From: an uncultured Candidatus Saccharibacteria bacterium
GTDB lineage: Bacteria; Patescibacteriota; Minisyncoccia; Phycocordibacterales; CAIZLB01
Direction of reading: 5' to 3'
DNA length: 64,000 bases
Assembly (NCBI GenBank): GCA_964550955.1
Contig: CAZKAF010000002.1
Span: 9,335 to 73,334, forward strand
The notes under the pieces are model-generated. The model made no database searches and was not told the DNA's origin. It saw only the letters and a program-made list of their open reading frames with translations. The position numbers and the translations under genes were made by a program. Of this stretch, positions 8,843 to 44,151 are shown in pieces; position 1 is the stretch's first letter, and each line of letters begins with the position of its first letter.

Positions 8843-9139
8843 CTATTGCAATCGTATTATGCCTGAATTTGATGAGGTTCTGTAAAAAATAATAATTGTG
8901 ATTACAATGACGATTACCAAAAATAGTATAACAAACAATTGCGCCTGCGTCTCGGTCTTAACAACACGGGTCTTGAGGATGAGCCGGATGATCATCGGGG
9001 GGGGGTTATCGACGCTCTGAAAACGGTCCTGCTGCATCGAGCGCATGTCGGTCTGATATCCCCTAAAACCCGCTTGCGGCGGCCTTGTCGGCAAAATCGG
9101 GTCTTCTTCGAATTGGAGGTCGGAGCTCATTAGTGTCAT
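8843..9139 (-). CDS. Possible small membrane protein (uncertain). The ORF spans the G9 homopolymer.
   Basis: 98-aa ORF ending in a strongly hydrophobic segment LFVILFLVIVIVITIIIF. No homology recognised, so it may be non-coding. Confidence 0.2.
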   Translation of the reverse strand: MTLMSSDLQFEEDPILPTRPPQAGFRGYQTDMRSMQQDRFQSVDNPPPMIIRLILKTRVVKTETQAQLFVILFLVIVIVITIIIFYRTSSNSGIIRLQ

Positions 9140-20500: not shown

Positions 20501-23500
20501 ATTCGTAGGATCGACAATGGTCAGTCCGTGCGTAGGAGTAGTTGTCCCGATTCCGACATTTCCGTTCTGAGTTATGGCAAACAGGCTTGTTCCGGTAGAA
20601 GACGCGACATTGAACGGATTGATTCCGGCGAGGCCTTTCTGGTCGAATGCGTACTGAGGGCTGTTATTGTTGACGCCGACTCTTCCGAACCTGTTGACCG
20701 TAAACGCCTCGGAGCCATGATCGTACGGCCTGACGTTGAACACGCTGGCTGATCCGAGATCGATGTTGACGGCGCCGCTGTTGCCTACCCCAACTGTAGT
20801 ATTCGCTCCTCCCTGAAGCCTCATGACATTGCTTGAGGCTCCGACATATCCTATGTCAGTTCCGGCTGTCGTAAATAGGACCTGATTGAAGCCGAGAGGA
20901 TTGCTGTTGACCATCATGAATCGGGTATTTGCACTTCCTCCAAAGCTCATCTGGGCATCGTTCTCAATTGGATTGACCGTAAAATACGTGTTCGTGTTGC
21001 CCGCATTGATGCTGAGACGCGCGCCCGGAGTAGATGTTCCGATTCCCACGTTTCCAGTGCTCTTGATGGTAAAGAGCCTCGCGTTCGTAGAGGACGCGAC
21101 GGTAAAGATGTCGGCCGTTCCAGCCGTTCCCGTGATCGCGAGCTTCGCGGACGGGGTGGTGGTGCCGATTCCGATATTTCCGGTGCTCTTGACGGTAAGG
21201 AGCTGCGCGTTCGTCGAGGAGGCGACGATAAAAACATCGCTTGTGCCCGCAGTGCCGGTAACGGCGAGCCGTGCCATCGGCGTGGTCGTGCCGATTCCGG
21301 TGAATCCGGTCGAAAGTATCGTGAGCTTCGCGCTGTTGTTCGGGCCTATCATGAGGCTGCCCCCGGTGGAGTTCGAGATATTGCCTCCGAACGCGAACGT
21401 GGCCGAACCGCCGTTCACGCTATTTCCGTATCCGAACGCGTAAGATGTCTGACTGTAAACATTATTTCCGTATCCGAACGATCCCGAATAAGCACTGTAG
21501 ACGCCGTTCGCGTATCCGACTATCGTGGAGTAATCGACCCACCCTGACATGGCATTGCTCGTGCCGATGACCGTAGGCGAATACGTGCCGGATACCGAGA
21601 CGCTGTTTCTGTAACCGATCGCGATTCCTTCATATGAATGCAGTACGTTCTGATAGCCGATCGCGATGGTATAGTCATCGGATGTCTCATTGAGATCTCC
21701 TAATATGTATGAATAGGAAGCATAGGCAGCGTTACTGAATCCCAAGGCAATTGAATAGACGGAATCGGCTGAAATCGTGTTGCTCTTTCCAAATGCATAG
21801 GACACGTATCCGTGCACCGTATTGGTTGATCCGATAGCGCTCGATTCGGTCCCGCCGGCATAATTTCCATATCCGGCGGCAAGTCCGTACGTCGACGCAA
21901 TATTCTGAACGCCAAGAGCGGTCGCGTACTGTCCGGCAGCTTGGTTCAAGTGGCCAAGAGCCGTAGCCCCGAGGCCCGCAGTGGTGTTCGCCGCGCCGAA
22001 TGCCGAAGAATCGGTACCGGTGACCGTATTCCTATTTCCGACAGCCGTGGATCTGACGCCCGAAGCAACCTGGCCGGCAGATACTCGGAAAGCCTGCATG
22101 TCAAGCGAGTTCGTATTGCGCGTATTGCCAGTCACGTCTCCGATGATTACAGGACTCGTGCCTGTTCCCATTCTGAGCGGACCCGTTATGTGGGCATTGC
22201 CTGCCACAACCAGCGTTGAGCCGGGCGTCGTAGTTCCGATGCCAACCGCTCCGGCAAACGTGCTCGTCGCCGTCGTGGAAGTGGCGACGAAGAAGGCGGC
22301 GCGGATAGCGTCAGTCGAAGTCGCCGTGGCGAGGAAGCCGCTGCCGAGCGTCAGGTAGTTTGAAGATGATCCGCCGGAAATGCCAAGCGTCGATGTTGCG
22401 ACCCACTTGGTGCCGGTGCCGGTAGTCTGAAGCACCATGCCGGCGGTGCCGGCCGATGAAAGCCCGTCGTAAAATATCCCCTGAAGTTCCATGTTTCCGT
22501 ACACCTCAAGGCCCACGGTGTCTACGCCCTGTACGGATACGCTGTTTCCCAGGAATCCGAGAGCGTTTACGTAACCAGTAACCGTGGCGCTTCCCGCTAC
22601 GGTCAGTTTATCCGTAGGAGTAGACGTCCCAATCCCGACGTTTCCAGTGCTCTTGACGGTAAAGAGCCTCGCGTTCGTAGAGGACGCGACGGTAAAGATG
22701 TCGGCCGTTCCAGCCGTTCCCGTGATCGCGAGCTTCGCGGACGGGGTGGTGGTGCCGATTCCTACGCTGCCTTGAAAGTAATTTCTTCCGCCTTCCGCAT
22801 AAACTGAGTAGCCGCTTGAATTATCCTGAAGGGCATAAAGCGCCTGGCCTCCCGATGCGTTGCTGTAGCCGGAAACGCCGATATGGCCTTCTCCTCGCAC
22901 GCCCTGGTACCCGCCGGTACCCAGCACTCCGGCAGATCCGAAATAGATGGACGGAGCGTAGCCGTAGATGGCATATGTGCCTGGCCCGTCGCTGTCAGCA
23001 TCCGGCACTTCAGCATACACGCCATATGTACTGCCAAAATCCCCGACATTGCCCGATATGATGGAGCGTATGCCGGACACGGACTGGTCAGGAATTGCCG
23101 AAGTCACGACAACCAGCTTCGAGCCGGGCGTCGTTGTTCCGATTCCGAAAGACCCGTTTGCCGTAACAACGCTTAGCGAACTCGAAGCCGCATCCTGCCA
23201 TTCCTGGAGGTTCGCAGTTTGAGAAGTGAAGCCTCGAACGATGAGGGCTCTTTGTCCGGCTGAAGTGGTATGAATCTCAGCTCTTGCGATATTCGCCACG
23301 CTCTCGCTTGAAAGAGAACTTACGAGCTTCAACGTAGCGCTTACCTCAAACGCGACCCTGCCCATCGAGTTGGCGATGAGGGTCGTGCCGGCAACTCCAG
23401 CATTGCCGTCCAATCGAGTCGGAAGATAGAGACCGTTGCTGAACCGGACAGATTCCGCTTGAAACCAGATGGCGCTTTGACCGCCTGCGCCCAATGTGTA

Positions 23501-25210
23501 TGTCTGAATTGACGCCTCACGACCAGTACTGTCCGTAAAACGTATTAATTTTGTAGCGTTAGCGAGATTGGATCGGAACAAAGTTCCATTTCCCTCCACA
23601 GCAAGAGTTGTGCTGCCGTTGGACCCTTGCCATTCCTGAATATTTGAAGTCTGAGTCGAATTAGCTCTTACTATTAACTGAGGTATGTCTGTTGAACCCT
23701 GGATGTGAAGCCGTGCGGCCGGAGTAGTAGTGCCTATGCCTACGCTGCCGTTGAATATTCCGCCGTGCGCACTAATGGTCGCAAACCCAGAATCATCCGC
23801 GAGTCGGAAATCGATTCCTGCTCCATTTCGCTTGATTGCAGGGAAAGACGAAGTCGTTCCTCCAAACGAAAGTCGTCCGAATGAAGTGCCTGCATTATCG
23901 TACAGCACTATATTGCCCACTCCATTAGGCCAAATGGAGGCATTGTTCTTGAGCAAAAGACCTCTGGTTTCTCCGACGGTTATATCCCAATTTGAAACAA
24001 TGGCCCCAGATGAAATGGACAATGAGCTAAGTGCACCTGTAAAAGATCCAGTACCCTGAACGGTGAGATTGCTGCCCGGCGTCGTTGTTCCGATTCCCAC
24101 GTTTCCAGTGCTCTTGATGGTAAAGAGCCTCGCGTTCGTAGAGGACGCGACGGCGAAGATGTCGGCCGTTCCGGCCGTTCCCGTGATCGCGAGCTTGGCT
24201 GATGGTGTAGTACTGCCGATACCGACGTCGCCCGTATTGTAATAAATATTTGCGCCGGAGGTTATCCACTGGCTGCTCACCTTGCTCGCCCACTCGGTCG
24301 TAGACGCGGTGAGAGGGATGGTATAGCCGACAGCAAGAGCCAGATCTCCCGTACCTGCAGTGTATGTCAGCCCTGTCGCAGAGCTCGAAAACATATTCCG
24401 GATAGTCGTGCTTGCAAGGCCTATTCGAGCGTCAGCTCGTTCGTTCGTGAAGTACAAGTTCGTGCCTTCTGCGATGTCAGTCGTGATGAGCCCGAGCGTC
24501 GAAGTCGAGATGGCGGAAACGGAACCGTTCGTGCCAACGAGCAGTCCTGTCAGCGAGCTGATTCGAAGCGTGCCAGTAACATTCGTAGTGCTTGCCGTGA
24601 GATTCGCCGCGTAAAAATTAGTACTCGTCGCATTCGTCGTCCTCAAGTTAGTCGACGTCGCATTCGTCGCATCAAGAGCTTTTGCAGTGTCAGCGACAAA
24701 GGCAGTCGGCACGGACGCGAACTTCTTTCGCGGAGACATCTCGCCGTCCCATGAAGGCGAAGCCGTTCCTCCGATATTCACGCCGAGGTAGATTGCCTGA
24801 TCGAAGTTGATGCCGGCAAGCGAGCTCACTGAGCCGAGAAGGACGCTGAAGAGTCCGTTCGTGACCTGGACCCTGTTGCCGCCCGTTCGAGTCTCAGTCC
24901 AGATGGCAGTTCCGCCGGAAGAAACCGTATAGAGCTTGAACTCCATGTTGTAGATGCCGTCAGGCACCGCGACGTTCGAAGACGTCATGAGCTTGCCCTG
25001 ATAGTTGATCTCGGTCGCCGCCTCCGCGCTTCCCGCAAGCGAAGGATGAACGAGGCTCGCCAGGATGATGACATTTGAAAAAATTAATAACACCGCACAT
25101 AAAAAATGGGCAGTGAGAGTCTTTTTGCTTTTTGGTGAAAAAATACCGTATTTCATGAAAAGGTTTCCGGCCGTTTTTTCGCAAGACTTTGATACCTGCT
25201 CGGTTATCAT
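17534..25210 (-). CDS. Giant (about 2558 aa) cell-surface protein. It combines tail-fibre-like GNVGIGTTTP repeats, LVIVD-type beta-propeller repeats, a C-terminal intramolecular-chaperone (endosialidase-chaperone / peptidase S74-like) domain, and a Pro/Glu-rich tail.
   Basis: The signal peptide/TM segment is near MKYGIFSPKSKKTLTAHFLCAVLLIF (start likely about 25156). There are more than 8 copies of G(N/T)VGIGT(T/S)TP(S/G)AKL(A/S)I.GTAGT(A/S)D(I/V)F.VASSTNA.L(F/L)T(I/V)KSTGN(V/I)GIGT. Six or seven tandem copies, about 75 aa each, carry VFVSGNYAY(I/V)...GCE(L/F)QI(W/Y)DVSNP..PV, which is LVIVD-like. The C-terminus has SDESLKENINTIEGALDKVMQLRGVSYEW, matching the tail-fibre intramolecular-chaperone motif, and then a PAPAPTVAPDP...PEEPAPGPETP tail. 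Confidence 0.85.
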   Translation of the reverse strand: MITEQVSKSCEKTAGNLFMKYGIFSPKSKKTLTAHFLCAVLLIFSNVIILASLVHPSLAGSAEAATEINYQGKLMTSSNVAVPDGIYNMEFKLYTVSSGGTAIWTETRTGGNRVQVTNGLFSVLLGSVSSLAGINFDQAIYLGVNIGGTASPSWDGEMSPRKKFASVPTAFVADTAKALDATNATSTNLRTTNATSTNFYAANLTASTTNVTGTLRISSLTGLLVGTNGSVSAISTSTLGLITTDIAEGTNLYFTNERADARIGLASTTIRNMFSSSATGLTYTAGTGDLALAVGYTIPLTASTTEWASKVSSQWITSGANIYYNTGDVGIGSTTPSAKLAITGTAGTADIFAVASSTNARLFTIKSTGNVGIGTTTPGSNLTVQGTGSFTGALSSLSISSGAIVSNWDITVGETRGLLLKNNASIWPNGVGNIVLYDNAGTSFGRLSFGGTTSSFPAIKRNGAGIDFRLADDSGFATISAHGGIFNGSVGIGTTTPAARLHIQGSTDIPQLIVRANSTQTSNIQEWQGSNGSTTLAVEGNGTLFRSNLANATKLIRFTDSTGREASIQTYTLGAGGQSAIWFQAESVRFSNGLYLPTRLDGNAGVAGTTLIANSMGRVAFEVSATLKLVSSLSSESVANIARAEIHTTSAGQRALIVRGFTSQTANLQEWQDAASSSLSVVTANGSFGIGTTTPGSKLVVVTSAIPDQSVSGIRSIISGNVGDFGSTYGVYAEVPDADSDGPGTYAIYGYAPSIYFGSAGVLGTGGYQGVRGEGHIGVSGYSNASGGQALYALQDNSSGYSVYAEGGRNYFQGSVGIGTTTPSAKLAITGTAGTADIFTVASSTNARLFTVKSTGNVGIGTSTPTDKLTVAGSATVTGYVNALGFLGNSVSVQGVDTVGLEVYGNMELQGIFYDGLSSAGTAGMVLQTTGTGTKWVATSTLGISGGSSSNYLTLGSGFLATATSTDAIRAAFFVATSTTATSTFAGAVGIGTTTPGSTLVVAGNAHITGPLRMGTGTSPVIIGDVTGNTRNTNSLDMQAFRVSAGQVASGVRSTAVGNRNTVTGTDSSAFGAANTTAGLGATALGHLNQAAGQYATALGVQNIASTYGLAAGYGNYAGGTESSAIGSTNTVHGYVSYAFGKSNTISADSVYSIALGFSNAAYASYSYILGDLNETSDDYTIAIGYQNVLHSYEGIAIGYRNSVSVSGTYSPTVIGTSNAMSGWVDYSTIVGYANGVYSAYSGSFGYGNNVYSQTSYAFGYGNSVNGGSATFAFGGNISNSTGGSLMIGPNNSAKLTILSTGFTGIGTTTPMARLAVTGTAGTSDVFIVASSTNAQLLTVKSTGNIGIGTTTPSAKLAITGTAGTADIFTVASSTNARLFTIKSTGNVGIGTSTPGARLSINAGNTNTYFTVNPIENDAQMSFGGSANTRFMMVNSNPLGFNQVLFTTAGTDIGYVGASSNVMRLQGGANTTVGVGNSGAVNIDLGSASVFNVRPYDHGSEAFTVNRFGRVGVNNNSPQYAFDQKGLAGINPFNVASSTGTSLFAITQNGNVGIGTTTPTHGLTIVDPTNYGFEPASSTHAIRIDSSGSWGSPGILFTGSSNGAGAYNGASIEALSRTGGVWNLAFKLGNSLTEVMTLRSTGNVGIGTSSPSHTLTVAGDINFTGNIYQNGVLFTADGGAAQWITHGVDIASYNAGNVGIGTDSPAAKLSVQGSLSEPPVLAYASGVDASSLTATGTVSGILSDVFVSGNYAFVAKAALATNCNTANNKAGCELQIYDVSNPATPVYVGGADAAGAANAGVGNVAFNSVFVSGNYAYIGKAAATTCDNGANRAGCEFQIWDVSDPSNPVYQSGIDASGSVNSGAGSLAFRTVFVSGNYAFVAKLGNATNCNDGSTKIGCELHIYNVSSSTAPSYVTGIDASGQVATGTTNSAFNDVFVSGNYMYIAKANATTCDAGANRNGCELQIWDVSNPASPVFVSGADSSGATNSGAGSIAFNAVVVRNGYAYVGQAGNNSDCGLVRLGCELKIFNVSNPANPVLVGGADSSGTANGGTSTLAFDDLFISGKYLYVTKGASAAECSLADGTGCELMVFDISNPAVPRYVAGADASGSVNAGFDSAAFNDVFVANGHVFITKAASATNCNDGGTKIGCEMQTYSLTGSADPTTAFAVAGSSVFTGTAKFSNLGGDNEYLTIHESGYVGIGISTPVAPLHVKTLDPGGLVGRFEGQYGGYTTWNNGSSDVGYVGSAAYFIAANTASEFGMRSAGNLTFAAGGNTEWLRITSGGNVGIGTSTPAQKLSVAGTIFASNLLGGATTLSTDANGNIIRSPSDESLKENINTIEGALDKVMQLRGVSYEWLDKARFGTSTEIGVIAQEVEQVVPEVVSSGGEYKSVKIANLVGLLIEAVKELKVKVDGIAKEVKNGIVYFAKISVEGLTVGSREKPAGITIYDETTNEPYCLKMKGGSMVSVPGKCGTVPAPAPTVAPDPVTIPDEPEEIPAEEEADELADEDQQGGGDSVTPPASGLTTPPEEPAPGPETPATAPEPTPAPASGPDNPSA

Positions 25211-25235
25211 TAATCTTTTTGGATGTCAAAACTGA

Positions 25236-26786
25236 CTACTCGCGAGACGCTCTCTTTTGCAAGAACCGTATAGCTAAAACGACTATGAGAAGAAGGAACG
25301 AAAATGAAAGAATCTTTCGAAAATCGATTCCAAACAGGGCACTTTGTCGATCAGCGCTTGAGTGCTGCTTGATTGTAAATTCTCCGCTGGCCAAAACGGT
25401 CTCTTTACTCTTATATTTTAGCATTCCGACGTAAAATTCATAGCTGTGCGTGCTGAAAAATGTGGGTATCTCCACTTCAAATTTTCGCGTTGCCGTGTTG
25501 TAAGAAAACATGTACCCCCTGCGCACTTCCGGAATGCGATTATTGATGCAAAATGCCAGCGCGCGAGCGTCATCGAGCGCCGCGTCGGTCGCATTCAGCT
25601 CGATTCGAACGGGCAGATTCGGTTCCAGGACAATCCTTGAATTCGTGAACGATATTTTCTTTCCGGCCTGAGTGATGGACAGGTCTTCGATCCTGATTTC
25701 CCTCAATCCCTTGTTCGAAAATCCGCCTTTGGAATTGCAGAACGTGTATTCGTAAAACGGATTGCTGTAATCGGGCACGACGTACGGGAAATTGTCATCG
25801 AGAAGAGGATCGTATGGCACGCCGGTTCCGTCAGGACCCATGCCCGGACCCGTGACAGGATCGGACGAATCGTCAGGATTGATCGGGTCAGTATCCAGAT
25901 TCGTTTTCGGACCCTTGTCATCGGGACTGAGCGGATAATACACCGCGGCTATGGCGGGCGCGGAGACGTTGCCGCTGCGGTCATACGCGAAGAGCGAATA
26001 AAAATACAGCGTGCCCGGCACCAGGCTGCTGTCAGTCACCTGAGTGCCTCTTCCTTCGTACACAACCTTTCCTTCAAGCGGAGTGCGCGGATAGAAGATA
26101 TCAGACCTCACGAGCCTCACGTACGAGAAGTCAGAGTCCGTAGGAACTTTCCAGTTCAGGACTATCTGGTTCGCATTCAGATACGCCGCGAGATCGGCCG
26201 GGGCGCTCGGAGGCGAGACGTCAGGCAAGCTCAGCGTGGTGAACTGGCCTAAATAATTTATCGTATCGCCGAGAGAATCCTTCAGGGTCAGGTTGAAATA
26301 ATAGCGAGTGCCTGGCTTCAGGTTCTCTATCTTGACGTTGAAGTCGTTGTGATACCAGGCCTCGGAAAGGCTTCCTATCTCGTAGTCGGGAGTCTCTCCC
26401 CACGAGATGGACGCGATCGAGGCGAAAAGAGTCTTCAGACTCAGGGTGGCGCTGTAAAAATCAGGCGAAATCTGTATGTTCCTGATTTCGTTCGGAGTGG
26501 TGCTTGTCGAAGACGTGACCGTTGAGCCTGACCCGCCTCCTACGGGCGGCGTCGAAGTCGGAGCGGGCGGCGCGGGACAGTCGCTCGGACATGACAGGTA
26601 ATCTTCGCCGATAACGTCTTCGCATATCGCATTGTTGTTGCAGATGAGGACCTGAAGCTGCACCGTGGTCGAATTGGCGGCAGCCTGTTTCGGGCTGACG
26701 CCGCCGAAGGAAGCCAGGCCGATGAGAACGAGAAAAAAGCAAGCGAGCAGGAAACCTTCGAATTTTTTAGCAAGCTTGTCAGGCAC
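25236..26786 (-). CDS. Surface protein with fibronectin type III-like domains and a C-terminal TM anchor
   Basis: N-terminal signal/TM segment, a Cys-containing stalk, then two FN3-like modules (one with WKVP...YVRLVRSD...GTLYFYSLFAYDRSGNVSAP), then a C-terminal hydrophobic helix plus KRASRE. Confidence 0.6.
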   Translation of the reverse strand: MPDKLAKKFEGFLLACFFLVLIGLASFGGVSPKQAAANSTTVQLQVLICNNNAICEDVIGEDYLSCPSDCPAPPAPTSTPPVGGGSGSTVTSSTSTTPNEIRNIQISPDFYSATLSLKTLFASIASISWGETPDYEIGSLSEAWYHNDFNVKIENLKPGTRYYFNLTLKDSLGDTINYLGQFTTLSLPDVSPPSAPADLAAYLNANQIVLNWKVPTDSDFSYVRLVRSDIFYPRTPLEGKVVYEGRGTQVTDSSLVPGTLYFYSLFAYDRSGNVSAPAIAAVYYPLSPDDKGPKTNLDTDPINPDDSSDPVTGPGMGPDGTGVPYDPLLDDNFPYVVPDYSNPFYEYTFCNSKGGFSNKGLREIRIEDLSITQAGKKISFTNSRIVLEPNLPVRIELNATDAALDDARALAFCINNRIPEVRRGYMFSYNTATRKFEVEIPTFFSTHSYEFYVGMLKYKSKETVLASGEFTIKQHSSADRQSALFGIDFRKILSFSFLLLIVVLAIRFLQKRASRE

Positions 26787-26904
26787 GAAAACAGTATACC
26801 ATTCGAATAATAAAAATATCCAATTGCTTTTGCGGAGCGAGCTATCGATGTCCGGAACCGAAGTCGGAGTCGGCGGTCCTTGCTCGCCGGCAGGGCGCCG
26901 AAGA

Positions 26905-27669
26905 TTAAAGCGCGGTCGCAGTCACGGTAATCGACGCCGAATATCCGGAAGACGAATCCTGAATCACGTCAGCGCCGATATGCACCCTGTACTTGATTGT
27001 TGTCGTCGCGCCGGAGGGCTCGTTTGCCGTGGCGCCTTGAGAAATAATTTTCGGAGTCGTCGAGAATCCGTCCCAGCATGCATTCGCGGTATCGCCTGAG
27101 CCGAAATTGCAGACCGATCCGTTGTCCTTATACTTGCCGAGGATGTCGACGCCTTCCGGACTGAAGCCGAAAGAGCTCGATGCGGTCGAGGCGCTGTATG
27201 CAAAATCAGGATCGGCCCCTGACGGAGAATAATCGGCAATGCTCGATTGGCTCGCCCGCAATGCCGGGTTAGTCGAGGCTGAAACCGTCAGCTGATACCC
27301 GAGCGCATTGTTCGTGGTGACGTTCCATGAAGAAGAGCTCGTGCTTTGACCTCCGATCAATCCGCTGATAGATCCAAGATCGACGTCATCGACCGCGTTT
27401 ATGGAAACGTACGTGTCCTCCGGTATCCAGTATCCGGCCGACATGCGGTAATTGGTCGAGGATGAAAACCCGGTGCCCGCTTCGCCGACGGTCGAGCCGA
27501 GAGAGTAGCTGCTGCTTGTCGAGAACGATGTCCCTCCGGAATTTATGCTGTCCGTGTCGATGCGATAATTGGAGCTGCCCATGGTGTACGCGTCGATGCA
27601 GAAAGGAAGCAGCCCGATAAGCGAGAGCACGAAGAGGACGTATATTTTTCTAAGCAGCGGAATGTTCAT
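26905..27669 (-). CDS. Secreted Ser/Thr-rich surface protein, paralogue of the 28794..29450 gene
   Basis: Signal peptide. Shares blocks with the paralogue: SSWNVTTNNALGYQLTVSASTNPALRAS..SIADY and a C-terminal SGYSASITVTATAL. Shows a WxL-domain-like alternating pattern but lacks the tryptophans. Confidence 0.5.
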   Translation of the reverse strand: MNIPLLRKIYVLFVLSLIGLLPFCIDAYTMGSSNYRIDTDSINSGGTSFSTSSSYSLGSTVGEAGTGFSSSTNYRMSAGYWIPEDTYVSINAVDDVDLGSISGLIGGQSTSSSSWNVTTNNALGYQLTVSASTNPALRASQSSIADYSPSGADPDFAYSASTASSSFGFSPEGVDILGKYKDNGSVCNFGSGDTANACWDGFSTTPKIISQGATANEPSGATTTIKYRVHIGADVIQDSSSGYSASITVTATAL

Positions 27670-27762
27670 ATTTTAAAGCCGGCCCTTTTCGCCCGTCAAT
27701 TCGCCCGGCAAGTTCTGACAAAAATCACGTCTTCGCAGGCCGGAGCGAGTTGGCGGCAGGGC

Positions 27763-28719
27763 CTATTTTCTCTTGAGCTCAAACTTCTTGCCGAACAGGT
27801 ACATGCCAGTCACGACCAGGAAGACGACGAGAACCAGGCCTGCGACGTATTTCCATGGAATTGCCCAGAAGGATATTTTCTGCTCGTCAACGACGTCGCC
27901 GTAACCTCGATTCAGGGAAAGGGTCGCGGTATATCGCCCGAAGAGAGTTTCCTTGTCCCAATTGACCTGACGATACCTGAGCGAATCAGGAAGCGAGAAA
28001 TACGCATCTACGGGAACCGCGGCAACTTCCCTGCCGAAGATGTTTCTCACCTTGACCATGCCGTATGGCACCAAGTGCACGCTTCCCTCGTTCTTGTAAA
28101 GTATTTCGAAAGTAATCGGACCATTTTGAATGATTCCGGGCTTCGGACCCTTGGCCCTGAAGTCTTCGAGCCTTCCTGATTCGTTGACCGGGCCGTTTAC
28201 CCTGATGAAGAAGAGGACTCCGAGTCGGGAGACGATTCTGGTTCTGCCCGCCGAAACGTCGGATGCGTTATCGGGAGGGATGCTGGCAACGATGACCGAA
28301 GAGTAGTAACCGCCCGGCGCAGTTTCCGCAGGAACCGTTATGGTCACGGGAATCTGAATTCTCTGGCCCAAGTCAAGGGAGAAATTGTCAACGCTGGGAT
28401 TGATGTTGTTTCGGAAAGAGTGAGGGCTCGAGTCGTCGTCAAGAAGAAGCACCGGAGTCTCGGGATCCTGCGTGCCGACGAAGTCTTCAGTCACCACTTG
28501 GAATCGCGTGTTCGGCGCGAGGCGGCTGATTACGGAAATGTTCTTAGTGACCGTCTCCCCCGGATTAAGGAAAACCTCTATCTTTCCGGGCTCCAGAACG
28601 AAGTCTCCTCGCGCGTCGACGCCTGTCGGAGTTATGGCCTGGGCGAAAGATTCGCTAGCCGCCGAAAACAGCAATGCGACCAAGAGTGCGGATGTTGCTA
28701 TTTTTCGGAAGGGGTTCAT
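27763..28719 (-). CDS. CscA/DUF916-like cell-surface protein (signal peptide plus C-terminal TM anchor with a KRK tail)
   Basis: Signal peptide. A central NFSLDLGQRIQIPVTITVPAETAPGGYY block resembles the DUF916 core. The C-terminus has a hydrophobic helix followed by KKFELKRK. It is flanked by two paralogous secreted proteins, as in Gram-positive csc (WxL) clusters. Confidence 0.5.
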   Translation of the reverse strand: MNPFRKIATSALLVALLFSAASESFAQAITPTGVDARGDFVLEPGKIEVFLNPGETVTKNISVISRLAPNTRFQVVTEDFVGTQDPETPVLLLDDDSSPHSFRNNINPSVDNFSLDLGQRIQIPVTITVPAETAPGGYYSSVIVASIPPDNASDVSAGRTRIVSRLGVLFFIRVNGPVNESGRLEDFRAKGPKPGIIQNGPITFEILYKNEGSVHLVPYGMVKVRNIFGREVAAVPVDAYFSLPDSLRYRQVNWDKETLFGRYTATLSLNRGYGDVVDEQKISFWAIPWKYVAGLVLVVFLVVTGMYLFGKKFELKRK

Positions 28720-28793
28720 ATGTGGAAGATTATACCAGAAACTTAGCTAAGTAAAGATTGCCCGAAGAGCAGTCAAATACTCCGGATTGGCTT

Positions 28794-29450
28794 TTAAGAA
28801 GCGGTTGCCGTCGCGGTGATTATCGCCTGATACGTTCCTGACGGGATATAGAATGTGTTCTGTCCGACGGCATAGCATACGGTCGTGTCGATGCCGGTAG
28901 TAGTTGTCGTCGAAGTTCTCGTGAGCACGGTAAAGTTGGACGTAGTGAATCCCTTATAGTTCAAGGTCGTTGACGGGATATGGGCACCGCCTGATGCGCA
29001 AGTCGAGCCAGTTCCCCATGTGCCGGTAACAACGCCCGTTCCGAATACTGAGTATCCGAACGCCGCCGCGCCGGGAGAAACGGACCATGTGTTAGGCGAT
29101 CCTGTCTGGTAGTCCGCAATCGAAGCGGAAGTCGTGGCTTCCCTCATTGCCGGAGAAGTGGAAGCTCGGAGGGCCAGGGTATAGCCTGCCGAGTTGTTCG
29201 TCTTCACGTTCCATGTCGTCGTGCCTACGGCAGTGTCGGAAGAGACGCCGAGCGACGTGCTCATCGTTGAGTCAGCAGGAGAAGTGATTGAAATACCAGT
29301 CGTAACATTCAAAGTAATAACGACGGTGTCAGTAGCTTGAGCCTCTGACAGCGAAGGTTCAATTAAGGTAAAGCCCAGCATCAGGCAGAGCGTCGTGATG
29401 AGGGTTGAACTAATTATTTTTTTCATGTTTTTTTTCATTTGTAAATGCAA
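28794..29450 (-). CDS. Secreted Thr/Ser-rich surface protein, paralogue of the 26905..27669 gene
   Basis: Signal peptide. Shares blocks TTWNVKTNNSAGYTLALRASTSPAMRE..SIADY and a C-terminal GTYQAIITATATAS. Confidence 0.5.
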   Translation of the reverse strand: MHLQMKKNMKKIISSTLITTLCLMLGFTLIEPSLSEAQATDTVVITLNVTTGISITSPADSTMSTSLGVSSDTAVGTTTWNVKTNNSAGYTLALRASTSPAMREATTSASIADYQTGSPNTWSVSPGAAAFGYSVFGTGVVTGTWGTGSTCASGGAHIPSTTLNYKGFTTSNFTVLTRTSTTTTTGIDTTVCYAVGQNTFYIPSGTYQAIITATATAS

Positions 29451-29463
29451 CTTGGTAATTTAT

Positions 29464-29510
29464 AGTAAATATTATACCCGATATTTACTATGATAGCACC
29501 CCCCCCCCCC
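29464..29510. promoter_or_regulatory. Promoter-region elements upstream of the surface-protein locus: a 10-bp inverted repeat (TAGTAAATAT-N8-ATATTTACTA) followed by a C12 homopolymer (29499..29510). This is a candidate slipped-strand phase-variation site.
   Basis: Read directly from the sequence. The tract lies 49-60 bp upstream of the ATG at 29450 (minus strand) and downstream of the gatB stop. Confidence 0.4.
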
Positions 29511-29619
29511 GCAAAAGAAGCGTTTACCTGTGGACAACTGCAGCGACCTGTCAAAGCTCTCTCGATTCAATCCTTGAGCCGCTCATCAGGCATCAGGCGC
29601 GATTGCTTCAATTATTTAT

Positions 29620-31371
29620 TTAATTTTTATTTAAAAATTCTACAACCGCCTCTTTGGCAAGCTGCGGATTTACCGAGCCTTTGCTCAATTTCATGATTTG
29701 CCCGACAAAAAACTGAAGCGAGGCCTCCTTGCCGCCGAGATAATCTGCCACGACTGTCGGATGAGCGGAGACGAGCCCCTCAACCATCTTTTTCAGGGCT
29801 TCCGGGTCGTTTTTCTGAATCATCCCCTTCTCTTCGGCAATCTGCGCCGGTTTCTTTCCAACAAACTTCTCGCCATCAAGAAACGCGTCCTTAGGGTCCG
29901 TGACAGCCACTCCGTATTCGGCAAACAGACTTGCAGACCACAGATGCGCCAGAAGATCCTTGGCGCCTCGCGAAATGATGTCGCCTTTCTTGAGCATTTC
30001 CACTATCTGCGCGAAATCATCAGTCGAAACGCAAATGTCACCGGCATGCTTCGCGCCCGAAGTCTTGCCGGCAGTTTCGCCGACAAGCTTCGTCGTCTTC
30101 GCAACAAGCCCCGCGATGTCAGACGTGATGTAGTTGACCGCCAGCTTGGTCTTCTCGACGCCGGCAGCATCTGAGCCGAATGCGGCCGCGACAGTTTCGA
30201 AAAATGTCCTGAACTTCTCATTCTGCACGAACATTTCCGCGTCCTCTTCCTTCATGCCGAACGTCTCAACGTATCGGGACCGCAATTCCCATGGCAGCGC
30301 GGCCATCTCGGCCCGAAGAAGCTCGGGCTTGAATTCCGGAATCTCCGAAATCATCAGCTTCGGAAGATCCGGGTCCGGAAAATATCGGTAGTCATGCGAA
30401 TCCTCCTTCGCTCTCTGAGAAAAGGTTTTTCCTGTCGTCTCATCGAAGCCCCTTGTCTCCTGGACAATGACCAGTCCGGCTTTTTTCAGGTCATCTTCCG
30501 TCACGGCGCTGCCACTCCCCGCGCCAGTACTTGCACTTGCATCAAGCTCGACAGCCCTCCGTTCAAGGATGTCTATATGTCGTTCAATTTCGAACTCGAT
30601 CGCCCGTTCGACCGACTTGAACGAGTTAAGGTTCTTGACTTCGACTTTTCTGCCGAAATTTTTCAGATCGTATGGCAGCTGATGAGCAAGCGGATTTTCC
30701 GAAACGGAAATGTTCGCTTCCACGCGCATCTCTCCCTTTTCCATGTTCGCATCGCCCGCTCCGAGCGACCGGAGAAGCAGCTGCAGCTCTTTCGCGAAGT
30801 TCGCGGCGGTCTTGGCATCGTAAATGACAGGCTCAGTTACAAGCTCCATCAGCGGAAGTCCGGCTCGATTGAAATCGACGAGGCTGTACGAGCTGCCATC
30901 CGTATCTTTCGGCGCGTCGTGAGACGAGCTCGCCGTATCTTCTTCCAAGTGGATGCGGGTCAGCTCGACTCTCTGAAGCTTGGCCTGATTGGTTGCAGGG
31001 TCGACATCCTTAGGATCGCCCTTAACCAGAAGAGAGCCTCCTTTTATGAGCGGATATGCGAACTGGCTGATCTGGTACCCTTTCGGAATGTCAGGATAAA
31101 AATAATTCTTTCGATCCCATTCCGTGTAATCCGCAATTTCAGATCCGAGCGCCAGGCCGGCCTTGAGCACGTGCTTGATCGCCTGCTTGTTCAGCGTCGG
31201 CAGCGTTCCGGGATGCCCCATGCAGATGGCGCAAATGTTAGCGTTCGGCTTTTCTTCATCCGGGTCATTCCTGCAGCTGCAAAACATCTTTGACTTGGTC
31301 TTGAGCTCGGCATGTATCTCGAGTCCGATGACCGGATAATATTTTTTTCCGTTTGGCCTGATGATTACCAT
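29620..31371 (-). CDS. gatB: Asp-tRNA(Asn)/Glu-tRNA(Gln) amidotransferase subunit B
   Basis: YYPVIGLEIHAELKT N-terminus, CAICMGHPGTLP motif, C-terminal YqeY-like GatB domain. Confidence 0.9.
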   Translation of the reverse strand: MVIIRPNGKKYYPVIGLEIHAELKTKSKMFCSCRNDPDEEKPNANICAICMGHPGTLPTLNKQAIKHVLKAGLALGSEIADYTEWDRKNYFYPDIPKGYQISQFAYPLIKGGSLLVKGDPKDVDPATNQAKLQRVELTRIHLEEDTASSSHDAPKDTDGSSYSLVDFNRAGLPLMELVTEPVIYDAKTAANFAKELQLLLRSLGAGDANMEKGEMRVEANISVSENPLAHQLPYDLKNFGRKVEVKNLNSFKSVERAIEFEIERHIDILERRAVELDASASTGAGSGSAVTEDDLKKAGLVIVQETRGFDETTGKTFSQRAKEDSHDYRYFPDPDLPKLMISEIPEFKPELLRAEMAALPWELRSRYVETFGMKEEDAEMFVQNEKFRTFFETVAAAFGSDAAGVEKTKLAVNYITSDIAGLVAKTTKLVGETAGKTSGAKHAGDICVSTDDFAQIVEMLKKGDIISRGAKDLLAHLWSASLFAEYGVAVTDPKDAFLDGEKFVGKKPAQIAEEKGMIQKNDPEALKKMVEGLVSAHPTVVADYLGGKEASLQFFVGQIMKLSKGSVNPQLAKEAVVEFLNKN

Positions 31372-31440
31372 TTTTTTATTGCGTTATTTGGGATTACGGC
31401 TGATTTTGGCTGCCCTGATCCAATTGCCCTCGATTATATC

Positions 31441-32427
31441 TTATTTTTTGTTCGTAATATATTCCCCGAACGTTTTCAGCGCCTCGATGTCATAAACTGA
31501 TATGGCCTGAACCTCCTTGCCTTCCCATTCCGGAACGGCCTTTCTGATCGAGACCAGCCGAGCCTCAAGCTCGTCGGGAGGAACGACGTCAGTTTTCGTG
31601 AGAAGGATGATTTCTTCCTTCTTGCCGAGTTCAGGGTCATACGACTCAAGCTCGTTCCTGATTGTCTTGTATGCGCTCGCTATCTCCTCGGCCGTTTCGT
31701 GCTCAAGCGAAATGCAGTGTATGAGTTTTTTAGTCCTTCTAATATGTCTTAAAAATTTATGCCCGAGCCCCTTGCCTTCCGAAGCGCCCTCGATGAGGCC
31801 GGGAATGTCCGCCAAGATGTATCCGTACAGGCTTCCGAGGTTCGGCTCAAGCGTCGTGAACTGGTACGCGCCGACTTTCACGTTCGCTTTCGTCAGCGCG
31901 TTCAGAAGGGATGACTTGCCGGCATTCGGCAGCCCGATGAAGCCGGCATCGGCAATAAGTTCCACCTCTATATAAAAAGTCGCCTCCTCGCCGTTTTTGC
32001 CCGGAGTCCATTGTTCAGGCCTCTGGTTGGTCGAACCTTTAAAGTGCTCATTGCCAAGCCCGCCGTTTCCGCCCTTAAGAAGAAGGATCTCCTGGCCCTC
32101 CTCGTCGAGGCGATACACCTCGTCCGTCGAAAGGTTCTTGATGATGCTTCCGACAGGCAATTCTACGTACATCGCCTCGCCGTTTGCCCCATGCTTGCTG
32201 TTCCCTCCTCCCGGCTCGCCGTTCTCGGCCTGAAACTCCTTGGTGTTCTTGTACCGTACCAGCATCAGGGCATCATGAACGCCTCGTACATATATATGTC
32301 CGCCTCGGCCGCCGTCGCCTCCCGAAGGACCGCCGAATTCCTTGAACTTCTCGTGAAGCCATCGAACGACGCCGTTTCCCCCTCTTCCAGCCCTCATATG
32401 AACCGTCATTTCATCGATAAATGCCAT
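31441..32427 (-). CDS. obg: GTPase Obg/CgtA
   Basis: Gly-rich Obg fold (GGDGGRGGHIY, GGNGGLGNEHF) and G-domain motifs GLPNAGKSS, DIPGLIEGA and TKTD. Confidence 0.9.
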   Translation of the reverse strand: MAFIDEMTVHMRAGRGGNGVVRWLHEKFKEFGGPSGGDGGRGGHIYVRGVHDALMLVRYKNTKEFQAENGEPGGGNSKHGANGEAMYVELPVGSIIKNLSTDEVYRLDEEGQEILLLKGGNGGLGNEHFKGSTNQRPEQWTPGKNGEEATFYIEVELIADAGFIGLPNAGKSSLLNALTKANVKVGAYQFTTLEPNLGSLYGYILADIPGLIEGASEGKGLGHKFLRHIRRTKKLIHCISLEHETAEEIASAYKTIRNELESYDPELGKKEEIILLTKTDVVPPDELEARLVSIRKAVPEWEGKEVQAISVYDIEALKTFGEYITNKK

Positions 32428-32437
32428 AGTTGTATGA

Positions 32438-32674
32438 CTATATCATATTATCGGGAGAATTGGGCTTTTTGACATGCGCGTGATTTCCGAGCGCCGAAAA
32501 TGCCGCTTTGAGGTAATTTCCGACAGAAAAATCCAGCAATTCGATTCCCACGATTTTTGATTCTTCATTGAAATCAAGAATGACTTTTTCAGTAAGCGCC
32601 TTCGTTCTCTGGATGGAGTCCTTTCTTATTTTTACATACGCGCTTTTTGTCTCCTTATCGTAGGTTATGTTCAT
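32438..32674 (-). CDS. DUF2283-family small protein (putative antitoxin partner)
   Basis: 78 aa. YDKETKSAYVKI...VGIELLDFS pattern typical of DUF2283. Its start overlaps the stop of the upstream DUF4258-like ORF by 4 nt. Confidence 0.5.
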   Translation of the reverse strand: MNITYDKETKSAYVKIRKDSIQRTKALTEKVILDFNEESKIVGIELLDFSVGNYLKAAFSALGNHAHVKKPNSPDNMI

Positions 32675-32892
32675 ATGTAGTATGACGTGATTATAATGTA
32701 AGTATTACCCATTTTATTGGCCACAACAAGCAGGTTTTCATCCCCAATTCCCTTAATAAACCTAAGTTTTGATATATCTTTCCTGTCGACCTCCACTGAG
32801 TCTGGCTCCTTCAAGCATTTCCTTATCTTTTCAATGCTTATGCCCCGCTCGAACAGCCGAATCTGGGCATGATAGGTCAGAACGAGATTCAT
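32671..32892 (-). CDS. DUF4258-family small protein (putative toxin partner)
   Basis: 73 aa. HAQIRLFERGIS motif, as in DUF4258 (RelE-fold-like) proteins that are commonly paired with DUF2283. Confidence 0.5.
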   Translation of the reverse strand: MNLVLTYHAQIRLFERGISIEKIRKCLKEPDSVEVDRKDISKLRFIKGIGDENLLVVANKMGNTYIIITSYYI

Positions 32893-33004
32893 CCCTGATA
32901 CAATAAATAACCAGGATTAAGAACGCATAAATTGTAGATGAAAACCGAATCCAGCGGCCATCCATGGACAAAAGAAGCGCCCTCTGCTAATATGGACACC
33001 AACG

Positions 33005-33238
33005 ATGGAAACGCAAGCCATTCTGCCTATTATTCAAATAATCCTAGCGATACTCCTAACGGTCGCAGTCCTTTTTCAGCAGTCTGAAGCGGGCGCTGGC
33101 GGTGCCTTTGGCGGCGGAAGCGATTCCGTCTCTTCATGGAGAACCCGACGAGGCTTTGAAAAAACTCTGTTTACCGCAACAATCATCCTTGCCGCCCTTT
33201 TCGTGGCGTCAGCAATAGTTGCCCTCAGAATCGCATAG
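33005..33238 (+). CDS. secG: Preprotein translocase subunit SecG
   Basis: 77 aa. Two TM helices separated by a Gly-rich loop: LAILLTVAVLFQQSEAGAGGAFGGGSD...RGFEKTLFTATIILAALFVA. Confidence 0.75.
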   Translation: METQAILPIIQIILAILLTVAVLFQQSEAGAGGAFGGGSDSVSSWRTRRGFEKTLFTATIILAALFVASAIVALRIA

Positions 33239-33333
33239 CCTGACCGCCCCGAGCGGGCTGCAAGTCAGCATTTGTGAAAATAGGTAAATCAACCCCGTTT
33301 CTCATCACATTCAACCGTTCGTAAGTACAAATA

Positions 33334-35109
33334 TTGCGTTCTTTCTGCTGTACTCTACCTCCTCATTACTATAACAACCCACCTATCGTGAAAAAACTGA
33401 TTAACGCTCTCCGTCCGACGGAAAGACTTCTCTTCTTCGCATGCGGATTCCTTCTGGTCCTGAGCGGCCTTTACATACTCGACCGAGTCAATAAGAACTA
33501 TTCCGTGGAGATTCCCGTTCAAGGCGGATCTTACATCGAGGGAATCGTCGGATACGCGCGATACATAAACCCCGTCCTCGCATATACTGATGCCGACAAG
33601 GACATGATTCACCTGGTCTACTCGGGCCTCCTCAAGCCTTCGGCCGAAGGGCGGCTCGTGGGCGACCTTGCCGAATCGTGGAATATCTCCGAAGACGGGC
33701 TGACATACTCGTTCAAGCTGAAGCCGGACCTGACTTTTCACAACAACGCCCCCCTGACGACCGAGGACATCGCGTTCACGATCGAGAAGATGCGCGATCC
33801 CGCAACCAAGAGTCCCAAGGCGGACATCTGGAACGGAGTCAAGGTAGAGACGATCAGCGATCAGGAAATCACCTTTACCCTGAAGACGGCGTATTCGCCT
33901 TTTCTTGAAAACCTCACCTTCGGCGTCCTGCCGAAAAGCCTTTGGAGAAATATCCAGCCAGAAGCGTTCGACATCAACACCCTCAACCGCGAGCCTGTCG
34001 GATCGGGACCGTACATGATCAAGAAGGCGCACAAGAACGCCGAGGGAATTTATGAATACTACGACCTCGTGCCGTTCAGGAAGCACAGCCTCGGCACCGC
34101 GTACATCAAAAGCCTGAGGATCAAGTTCTTCAAGAGCGAGCAAGACGCTCTTGCCGCGTACAAGGAACGATCCATCGACGCGCTCGGAGGAATCGATCCC
34201 AAATCCGCGTCCGAACTGAAGGAAGCGGGATACAACGTCACGAGCGCTTCCCTGCCGAGGACATTTGCCGTCTTCCTCAATCAGAGCGAATCTCCGGTGC
34301 TTCTCAACAAGGAAGTGCGCGAGGCGCTGAACGTTTCGGTGGACAGAGGCGAACTGATAGACACCGTCCTCAGCACGTGGGGCGTGCCGGTGACAGGACC
34401 GATACCGGTAGACTTGGTGAATCAGGAAACCGGGCAATCCCTGACGAACAGCTCTTCGACGACCTCGTCGGACTTCGTCGAAGCAGGAAAATCAATCCTG
34501 GCTCAAAAAGGCTGGACGGCGAACGAGAACGGAATCCTTCAGAAGCAGGTCAGGAACGGGACAAGGACCGACACCCAGCTGCTTCAGTTCTCCATCTCGA
34601 CTTCGAACACGCCCGAATTGAAAGCGAGCGCGGAATTCCTGCAGCAAACTTGGACAAAATTGGGAGCCGATGTTAAAGTTGAAGTATTCGAACCATCTGA
34701 TCTGACCCAGAAAATCATTCGCCCGAGAAAATACCAATCCCTTCTCTTCGGAAACGTGATAGGGCGAGACCTGGACCTCTATCCGTTCTGGCATTCATCC
34801 GAACGAAACGATCCCGGCCTCAACATCGCGCTTTACACGAATATCAAGGCAGACAAGGCTCTCGAGACGCTCAGAAGCACTTCGGAAGAATCGAAGAAAC
34901 TGGAATCAAGGCAGGCTTTCCAAGCAGAGATGCAGAATGATATCCCGGCAATATTCCTCTACTCGCCAAGCTATATCTACGCCACGCACAAGAAGGTCAA
35001 GGACGTGACGCTGACGAACATGACTTCGACTTCGGAGCGGTTCATGAACGTCGAGCAATGGTATATCGAGACGGAGCGAGTCTGGAATTTCTTCCTTGCG
35101 ACGAAATAG
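33334..35109 (+). CDS. ABC transporter substrate-binding protein, family 5 (peptide/nickel, Opp/Dpp-like), membrane-anchored. The start is possibly GTG at 33388.
   Basis: N-terminal TM anchor, then the SBP_bac_5 architecture (LVGDLAESWNISEDGLTYSFKLKPDLTFHNNAPLTTEDIAFTIE, GSGPYMIKK). Confidence 0.8.
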   Translation: MRSFCCTLPPHYYNNPPIVKKLINALRPTERLLFFACGFLLVLSGLYILDRVNKNYSVEIPVQGGSYIEGIVGYARYINPVLAYTDADKDMIHLVYSGLLKPSAEGRLVGDLAESWNISEDGLTYSFKLKPDLTFHNNAPLTTEDIAFTIEKMRDPATKSPKADIWNGVKVETISDQEITFTLKTAYSPFLENLTFGVLPKSLWRNIQPEAFDINTLNREPVGSGPYMIKKAHKNAEGIYEYYDLVPFRKHSLGTAYIKSLRIKFFKSEQDALAAYKERSIDALGGIDPKSASELKEAGYNVTSASLPRTFAVFLNQSESPVLLNKEVREALNVSVDRGELIDTVLSTWGVPVTGPIPVDLVNQETGQSLTNSSSTTSSDFVEAGKSILAQKGWTANENGILQKQVRNGTRTDTQLLQFSISTSNTPELKASAEFLQQTWTKLGADVKVEVFEPSDLTQKIIRPRKYQSLLFGNVIGRDLDLYPFWHSSERNDPGLNIALYTNIKADKALETLRSTSEESKKLESRQAFQAEMQNDIPAIFLYSPSYIYATHKKVKDVTLTNMTSTSERFMNVEQWYIETERVWNFFLATK

Positions 35110-43773: not shown

Positions 43774-43875
43774 TTATTTTCTCTTAGCTGTTTTCTTCTT
43801 CGCTGCTTTCTTTGCAACTTTCTTGACTGCTTTCTTTACAGTCTTCTTAGCTGCTTTCTTCTTTTTTGCTGCCAT
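43774..43875 (-). CDS. Possible small Lys/Ala-rich basic protein (33 aa: MAAKKKKAAKKTVKKAVKKVAKKAAKKKTAKRK)
   Basis: Hand translation of the minus strand. It is shorter than the ORF-track cutoff. Composition resembles small histone-H1-like or ribosome-associated basic proteins. No SD sequence was checked. Confidence 0.3.
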   Translation of the reverse strand: MAAKKKKAAKKTVKKAVKKVAKKAAKKKTAKRK

Positions 43876-44151
43876 GTTAGTGGTTGAAAGGAACAATTAT
43901 TTGTAAGTGTTCAACATGCCGACTCGCATATGAACCATGTAGTAATTATCTTTCACATTTCACTTACTCGCAATATTTTTTTGAGAAAAAGTGTGGATAA
44001 CTTTTTTTATTTAAAAAAGTTTTTTTGTTTCATTTATTTTATTTTTATTTTTTAGAAAGGATCTTTTTGTTTTTTAAAGTTTAATTTACTTTAATTTATC
44101 CTTGATGCGCGCACAGACGACCGCCAGCTTCCATCCGCGCAACTCTTGCAC

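Follow-up and report, generated by a model that had tools for sequence, protein, structure and literature searches.

In Neisseria meningitidis, homopolymeric tracts of about 9–15 nucleotides (nt), poly-C in the opc promoter and poly-G in that of porA, occupy the −35/spacer region, and their slippage results in high, intermediate or no transcription. In Bordetella pertussis, the promoters of fim2 and fim3 carry a poly-C run between the region of the activator BvgA and the −10 element, where tract length sets the geometry between activator and polymerase and turns the fimbriae on or off. Repeats of longer units located upstream of the core promoter act in a similar manner; the number of TAAA units at Neisseria nadA and of TA units at Haemophilus influenzae hifA/hifB shifts the spacing and phasing of promoter elements. 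Here, we are discussing a candidate for such a switch from the Candidate Phyla Radiation (CPR)—a run of 12 cytosines (G12 on the gene strand) in the predicted promoter of a five-gene, pilus-like operon. It is located in a 64-kb stretch of contig CAZKAF010000002.1 (assembly GCA_964550955.1), the whole of which is called the window and to which positions refer.

Like opc and porA, the locus would combine a G/C homopolymer with the −35/spacer region of a surface-protein promoter. There, however, the promoters are mapped, the tract is bracketed by defined −35 and −10 elements, and the organism is a cultured pathogen, whereas here the promoter is predicted and the partner of the tract appears to be a box situated 18 nt on its 5′ side. 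The nearest analogy is provided by fim2/fim3, where a pilus gene likewise has an activator site as well as a tract in the −35 position; in contrast to the known BvgA, DnaA as the binder of the box TTATCC[AC]CA is a guess from sequence, and the pilus system is unrelated. With nadA and hifA/hifB, the locus would share a repeat-dependent promoter spacing at adhesin or fimbrial genes, but their repeats are tetra- and dinucleotides instead of a homopolymer, and the host organisms are different. The mechanism, homopolymer-based promoter phase variation, is classical; the novelty would lie in the lineage and in the pilus system. In a full-text literature search covering CPR, Patescibacteria and Saccharibacteria, no repeat-mediated phase variation was found reported for a CPR bacterium; a hypervariable coding repeat is described in a Gracilibacterium (PMC6851277), and the other matches concern host bacteria.

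The tract occupies exactly the position given for it in the original prediction, which had been made from the DNA alone (Table 1). In a scan of the whole window, it is the sole homopolymer of at least 10 nt, the next-longest being a G9 at 8997–9005. The base composition (52.4% G+C) leads to an expectation of 0.006 C12 and 0.004 G12 runs per window, in agreement with the view that a run of this length is improbable by chance. G/C runs of approximately 8 nt or more are hypermutable in Neisseria, Campylobacter and Haemophilus, and G12 exceeds this generally known threshold. The tract is contained in the 181-nt spacer between gatB and the pilin-like gene g1, which is the only upstream intergenic region of the operon. 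It does lie upstream of the first gene, at a distance different from the roughly 50 bp proposed: position 29450, taken for the ATG, holds an in-frame TTG, while the ATG chosen by the gene callers is at 29438, and the tract is therefore found 61–72 nt 5′ of the start codon.

Insight into the promoter comes from orthologous loci, 80 of which were fetched from GTDB genomes and 80 from metagenomes (71 with upstream sequence). In an unbiased k-mer count upstream of the gene in 80 orthologous loci, TATCCACA is the top 8-mer, occurring in 23 loci versus 1.0 expected. The full element, (G)TTATCC[AC]CA, represented by TTATCCACA, is identical to the DnaA-box consensus, and the box TTATCC[AC]CA precedes the gene in 46/80 genome and 31/71 metagenome loci. 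A total of 119 strict boxes occur in about 0.94 Mb; measured to a strong −10 hexamer, their distances form two sharp peaks, with 27 cases at 29–33 nt and 29 cases at 39–43 nt; the bins at 34–38 nt (5 cases) and 44–48 nt (4 cases) are sparse, and the two populated classes differ by one helical turn. The box also stands before unrelated genes, for instance at 43992–44000 of the window (minus strand), 41 nt from GATAAT, with a small basic protein and secA located downstream; therefore, it is a general promoter-upstream element of these bacteria. No paper tying this motif to CPR promoters was found in the literature. Between this box-type promoter and secA, at 43774–43896 (minus strand), there is an open reading frame (ORF) of 33–40 amino acids (aa) that is extremely rich in Lys and Ala (MAAKKKKAAKKTVKK...).

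On the gene strand of the window, the elements follow each other in the order TTGTCCACA—18 nt—G12—TGC—TATCAT—AGTAAATATCGGG—TATAAT. Two −10 candidates deserve attention. For P1, the distance from the box equals tract length plus 21, that is 33 nt at G12, at the edge of the 29–33-nt peak of the family; tracts of G8–G12 would remain within the preferred spacing, and G13–G17 would fall into the 34–38-nt trough. For P2, the distance equals tract length plus 40, hence 52 nt, and the −35 position at a 17-nt spacer, GTGCTA (29494–29499), has the tract's final G as its first base. Since the tract sits between the box and every candidate −10 of this predicted promoter, its length would set both the distance and the helical phase between box and core promoter. 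In a MAFFT alignment, the G run is placed opposite the −35 element TTGACT and adjacent spacer of two orthologous loci (L085 and L005), and TGCTATCATAGTAAAT opposite TGTTATCAATGTAAAC of L085, which suggests that the tract replaced an ancestral −35 element. The location of the tract in the promoter region, as originally proposed, is thereby supported at the level of prediction by its place between box and −10 candidates, and the mapping of −35 and −10 elements relative to it yields P1 on its 3′ side and a P2 −35 position touching its last G; the −35 candidates are poor, and a consensus promoter scanner made no call here on the minus strand.

The tract itself is confined to this lineage. Upstream of the gene, no G/C run of at least 10 nt is present in the 80 genome and 71 metagenome loci, and the nearest relative (79% protein identity) is devoid of the tract. 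As it is missing from approximately 150 orthologous loci, the tract is taken to be a lineage-specific, recent acquisition rather than a conserved spacer. The proposed comparison of orthologous loci, accordingly, did not recover the tract, although it revealed shorter homopolymers in the same slot in a few lineages, which are treated further below.

For the strain itself, tract lengths could be compared on Logan contigs from two SRA runs (SRR16797981 and SRR16797977), retrieved via exact-protein look-ups. Contig L001 corresponds to window positions 29508..24124 (5385 nt, 100% identity) and starts with G10 at the tract; L002 corresponds to 29511..28300 (1212 nt, 100% identity) and starts with C followed by G12; L003, which covers the gatB side and is from the same run as L001, corresponds to 34371..29499 (4873 nt, 100% identity) and ends in GC followed by G14, two G more than in the window. 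The resulting lengths are 12 in L002, at least 14 in L003 and at least 10 in L001, the latter two being lower bounds at contig ends. All three contigs stop at the tract, and their remaining >10 kb are identical to the window. An internal control is offered by the C9 tract at 8997–9005, which is spanned intact and at the same length by contigs of 20 kb and 6 kb from the same two runs; the G12 site is the only place where the assemblies of this strain disagree or fail. These breaks and the disagreement are suggestive of a hypermutable tract. The length heterogeneity that had been anticipated may show among the contigs (10 at a start, 12, and 14 at an end), where it would be limited to contig ends, both complete copies having 12. 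A scan of Joint Genome Institute metagenome contigs for the flank plus C7 gave no match.

Long homopolymers recur in the promoters of related pilin genes. G/C runs of at least 8 nt occur just three times in the 877 kb that the orthologous loci comprise, each time touching the box in a pilin promoter. In one locus (L041), a C8 abuts a degenerate box; in two others (L124 and L145, the same sequence from two samples), a G9 is placed directly between the box and the −35 element TTGATT. Moreover, a third lineage has poly-T in the −35/−10 spacer, with T10 in three loci (L075, L083 and L138) and T11 in a fourth (L142). Including the window, this amounts to at least three independent appearances of a long homopolymer in the same functional slot, which argues against pure neutrality. 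A wider reading of the window G12, the L124/L145 G9, the L041 C8 and the T10/T11 of the L075 group is that slippage between a DnaA-box-like element and the core promoter constitutes a recurrent, independently evolved pilus switch in Paceibacteria; we advance this tentatively and consider it possible rather than probable.

For the window, we regard it as an even call whether the tract is a functional phase-variable, slipped-strand on/off switch at the promoter of the pilus operon. In such a switch, mispairing of slipped strands during replication would add or remove G:C pairs in a tract placed between the box TTGTCCACA and the candidate −10 elements, in what is the −35 slot of the nearest alignable relatives. 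Each unit of slippage would alter the distance and the helical phase between box and core promoter, which the relatives hold at 29–33 or 39–43 nt. Under P1, where lengths of 8–12 represent the preferred range and 13–17 the trough, the observed values of 12 and at least 14 would straddle the boundary. As the outcome, the pilus operon would be expressed stochastically, either ON/OFF or in grades, in a heritable and reversible manner. The originally predicted phase-variation switch is partly supported, by the surface operon, the predicted promoter, a tract length above the hypermutability threshold and the assembly breaks; the ON/OFF switching is inferred.

Several points weigh against a switch. 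The contig breaks and the G14 end may reflect slippage in library preparation or sequencing at a 12-nt homopolymer instead of heterogeneity in the population, since library polymerase chain reaction (PCR) and sequencing slippage are worst at runs of this kind, and a length of 12 is seen in each of the two complete copies, that of the window and that of L002. The tract is carried by one strain only, and the G9 of L124 and L145 is equal in length in both samples. In addition, three −10-like hexamers compete at 33, 42 and 52 nt from the box, the −35 candidates are poor, the consensus scanner called no promoter on this strand, and the box of the window deviates from the family element by one mismatch.

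Some of these observations lend themselves to other explanations. The tract may be hypermutable but functionally silent, having arisen by slippage where a lineage-specific promoter is under little constraint, and giving polymorphism without phase variation while expression proceeds from a −10 element insensitive to the tract, such as P2 acting without the box; we consider this unlikely, albeit a serious alternative. It fits with P2 being a perfect TATAAT whose 52 nt from the box lie outside both populated spacing classes, with a recognisable box missing in about half of the orthologous promoters, and with the confinement of the tract to one lineage. The three G/C tracts in 877 kb, however, all reside beside the box in pilin promoters, an association that argues for non-neutrality, and, from general knowledge of sigma-70 promoters, a 12-nt G run next to or inside the −35 element would probably affect contacts of the RNA polymerase. 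Of clearly lower probability is a cis element that stays static, whether as a rigid spacer of poly(dG)·poly(dC), as a protein site or as a composite operator together with the adjacent inverted repeat, and in which length is fixed and slippage incidental. The constant 12 in both complete copies and the identical G9 in two samples are in its favour, as is the adjoining inverted repeat, unusual with its 11 bp, which suggests protein binding; yet, the assemblies from both SRA runs break exactly at the tract, one of them reaching G14, about 150 orthologues show no conservation of the motif, and the window contains the repeat motif only once.

Marginally less credible still is an effect at the level of RNA or of an ORF, with the tract being transcribed from a start site upstream of it and acting in the 5′ leader, where it would influence stability, processing or translation, or framing a plus-strand ORF at 29490–29696. 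While a TTGACA hexamer is located upstream of the tract (29548–29553), it is followed by no acceptable −10 element; the intergenic leader RNA folds no better than shuffled sequences (z = −0.8), and the spacer RNA has no Rfam match at E ≤ 1 and no detectable terminator. The plus-strand ORF does cover the tract, and the scanner reported a plus-strand promoter-like site at 29439–29466; against its relevance, the ORF is devoid of a ribosome-binding site, runs antisense over gatB and belongs to a non-conserved intergenic stretch. This ORF of 68 aa, which begins right at the inverted repeat's edge, reads the C12 as PPPP and extends antisense into the 3′ end of gatB, is probably spurious. Two-colour Illumina chemistry is known to produce artefactual poly-G, and the termination of the contigs at the tract might raise the suspicion of such an artefact or of a chimeric join, which we regard as very improbable. 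In L001 and L002, the run is at the 5′ end on the G strand and is followed by unique sequence, which is the wrong orientation for 3′ poly-G tails, and L002 even includes the correct flanking C. Both flanks agree in three independent assemblies, the window and the contigs from two SRA runs. The succession of gatB and the pilin gene is also found in relatives (L004, L005, L006 and L085), so the junction is not chimeric; synteny and strand orientation together led us to dismiss a chimeric join and poly-G read tails, and the single-copy nature of the gatB-to-pilin spacer speaks against an artefact and rules out its origin from a mobile element or repeat.

The inverted repeat next to the tract had been proposed as a further part of the switch. 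It exists, though with arms of 11 nt instead of 10, ATAGTAAATAT (29462–29472) and ATATTTACTAT (29481–29491), and with a start that differs by 1–2 nt from the 29464 assumed; the 10-mers originally named are located at 29463–29472 and 29481–29490. The window contains 28 short-loop inverted repeats of at least 10 nt, this one included, and the repeat alone is therefore unremarkable. Its sequence is unique in the window. In 70 related promoters, the longest repeat arm over a −10 element is 8 nt, and such repeats are no more frequent than in shuffled sequences; together with the missing second copy in the window, this led to the rejection of a conserved operator. An invertible, fimS-type switch requires inverted repeats around a promoter segment of approximately 100–400 bp and a site-specific recombinase. 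In the window, the arms are 8 nt apart, and a scan of the neighbouring genes found no recombinase either upstream (SBP_bac_5, DUF4258, DUF2283, obg and gatB) or past the operon (GAPDH, rpiB, rpe, tkt, an FAD oxidase, PfkB and a type IV pilin-like gene, down to position 7562), so that this possibility was likewise rejected; nor was a regulator encountered among the scanned neighbours. The inverted repeat is not conserved in relatives, and it forms no part of the proposed slippage mechanism. It probably represents a lineage-specific operator over the −10 element, separate from slippage.

The operon downstream of the tract spans 17534–29438, and all genes of relevance here are on the minus strand (Table 1). 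For comparison, the Pam pilus system of CPR bacteria is composed of secreted Ig-like pilins, PapD-like chaperones whose C-terminal helix is transmembrane, and the single-domain tip pilin PamT; its CPR-specific operon further encodes a membrane anchor of the FnIII (RbmA-like) type and, co-localised, a tail-fibre-like protein (bioRxiv 10.64898/2026.03.03.709456). Pam pilins are mainly from Saccharimonadia and Microgenomatia, and the paper does not treat Paceibacteria, promoters or regulation (bioRxiv 10.64898/2026.03.03.709456). All five part types have counterparts in g1–g5, including a chaperone-like protein with a C-terminal transmembrane helix (g2), an fn3 anchor (g4) and a Peptidase_S74 neighbour (g5). 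The curated Pam models do not recognise the pilins of the locus; g3 matches NCBIfam NF058579 (CPR_pilus_PamT) with E = 8e-13 and 48 bits versus a cut-off of 240, which makes it related, but no equivalog, and g1 is a single-domain protein of 214 aa in comparison to the two-domain PamA/B. Phase variation has not been described for Pam.

Table 1. Features of the tract, its predicted promoter and the adjoining genes; the last three rows give positions on the orthologous loci named.
Feature	Position	Strand	Remarks
Homopolymer tract, C12 on + / G12 on gene strand	29499-29510	-	candidate slipped-strand tract
Upstream box TTGTCCACA	29529..29537	-	one mismatch versus family element TTATCCACA
Promoter candidate P1, extended -10 TGcTATCAT	29490..29498	-	predicted from sequence; directly 3′ of tract
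Promoter candidate P2, perfect -10 TATAAT	29471..29476	-	in loop and right arm of inverted repeat
Inverted repeat, 11+11 nt, 8-nt loop	29462..29491	.	overlaps both -10 candidates
obg	31441-32427	-	upstream of gatB
gatB	29620..31371	-	Pfam GatB_N, E = 7e-104; stop at 29620 bounds spacer
g1, 214 aa, secreted pilin-like, signal peptide	28794..29438	-	first operon gene
g2, 318 aa, two Ig-like domains, signal peptide, C-terminal transmembrane helix	27763..28719	-	pilus-chaperone-like
g3, 254 aa, PamT-like pilin	26905..27669	-	paralogue of g1
g4, 516 aa, PamR-anchor-like	25236..26786	-	Pfam fn3; C-terminal transmembrane helix
g5, 2558 aa, tail-fibre-like giant surface protein	17534..25210	-	Pfam Peptidase_S74, LVIVD, YadA_head
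C8 in L041	3907-3914		GTTATACAAA-C8-ACA; C8 abuts degenerate box
G9 in L124	1339-1347		GTTATCCACA-G9-TTGATT-16-GATAAT
G9 in L145	130-138		same sequence as L124, second sample

The first protein, g1, has 191 homologues, and all those with a named source are from Paceibacteria, Parcubacteria or Patescibacteria metagenome-assembled genomes, which identifies the organism of the window as a CPR bacterium (Paceibacteria). It matches no Pfam or NCBIfam family, and a sequence search versus the PDB remained without match. An AlphaFold (AF2) model built from 49 homologues reaches a predicted local distance difference test (pLDDT) value of 88, and its Foldseek matches in the PDB, weak as they are (E ~0.02), are mostly chaperone-usher pilins (CsuA/B, FimA, PapE and the pilin domain of PapG), along with TasA. 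At the beginning of g1, two further runs, A8 and A7 (Lys codons, 29417–29435), are positioned between and after the in-frame ATGs at 29438 and 29426; even after slippage in the A8 run, translation could still use the second ATG. For the 210-aa product from that second ATG, the exact-protein look-up returned no record. The paralogue g3 shares 31% identity with g1 (E = 1e-12).

For g2, whose hydrophobic C-terminal helix comprises residues 282–313, the AF2 model has a pLDDT of 89. In Foldseek, the Enterococcus WxLIP structure 9i25_C is matched with E = 1e-11, and the chaperones CfaA, CsuC, Caf1M and FimC with 1e-9 to 1e-6; the best structural matches are, thus, the Enterococcus faecium WxLIP proteins (9i25 and 9i1y), above the chaperones of Gram-negative chaperone-usher systems. 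Pfam WxLIP_PGBD is matched by 4/49 members of the g2 family. In common with the WxL/WxLIP loci of Enterococcus and Lactobacillus (PDB 9i25, 9i1y), g2 is laid out with a signal peptide, a pair of Ig-like domains and, at its C-terminus, a membrane anchor; in contrast to them, no WxL domain was detected in g1 or g3, the phylum is a different one, and the relation is only through fold and weak profile matches. The models hint at a link between Pam-like pili of CPR bacteria and WxL surface loci of Firmicutes. Taken together, the operon is predicted to encode a Pam-like/WxL-like donor-strand fibre (pilus-like) system that is not a curated Pam member, and with pilin-like g1 and g3, chaperone-like g2, an FnIII anchor in g4 and a tail-fibre-like g5, its original designation as a surface-protein locus proved apt.

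Within g5, three segments of about 100 nt (21073–21174, 22663–22766 and 24124–24225) are 88–89% identical to each other, and contig L001 ends at one of them. Beyond g5, GAPDH and pentose-phosphate genes follow. On the other side of the spacer, GatB has 583 aa, with the GatB_N profile (277 positions) extending over residues 14–343 and a GatB_Yqey match at residues 505–578, and it appears to contain insertions relative to the Pfam models. Upstream of obg, two small genes at 32438–32892 (minus strand), one for DUF4258 (73 aa) and one for DUF2283 (78 aa), together resemble a toxin-antitoxin-like module. The G9 of the plus strand at 8997–9005 reads as C9 on the minus strand, where it encodes PPP within a 98-aa ORF (8843–9139) that ends in a C-terminal transmembrane segment; directly downstream of this ORF follows a type IV pilin-like gene of 421 aa, which has an N_methyl motif (7562–8827). 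At this site, a 95-aa ORF was called in one SRA run and is absent from the gene call of the other; the exact-protein look-up of the 98-aa ORF gave no record.

CPR/Patescibacteria are thought to live attached to hosts, with pili being the leading candidates for host contact. Paceibacteria, in particular, are ultrasmall, probably host-attached and in possession of few regulators. Owing to its shortness, its uniqueness and its invariant flanks, the tract constitutes a practical handle for amplicon or long-read sequencing of existing samples. If slippage recurrently switches pili in this lineage, the Candidate Phyla Radiation would have its first described contingency locus here, and the TTATCC[AC]CA box, possibly bound by DnaA, would be a general transcription-activating element of the lineage. 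A phase-variable tract in the window would be an advance in taxonomic and biological scope, not in principle, and would provide these bacteria with a cheap, regulator-free means by which the members of a population could differ in attachment or evade phages or hosts that recognise the fibre.

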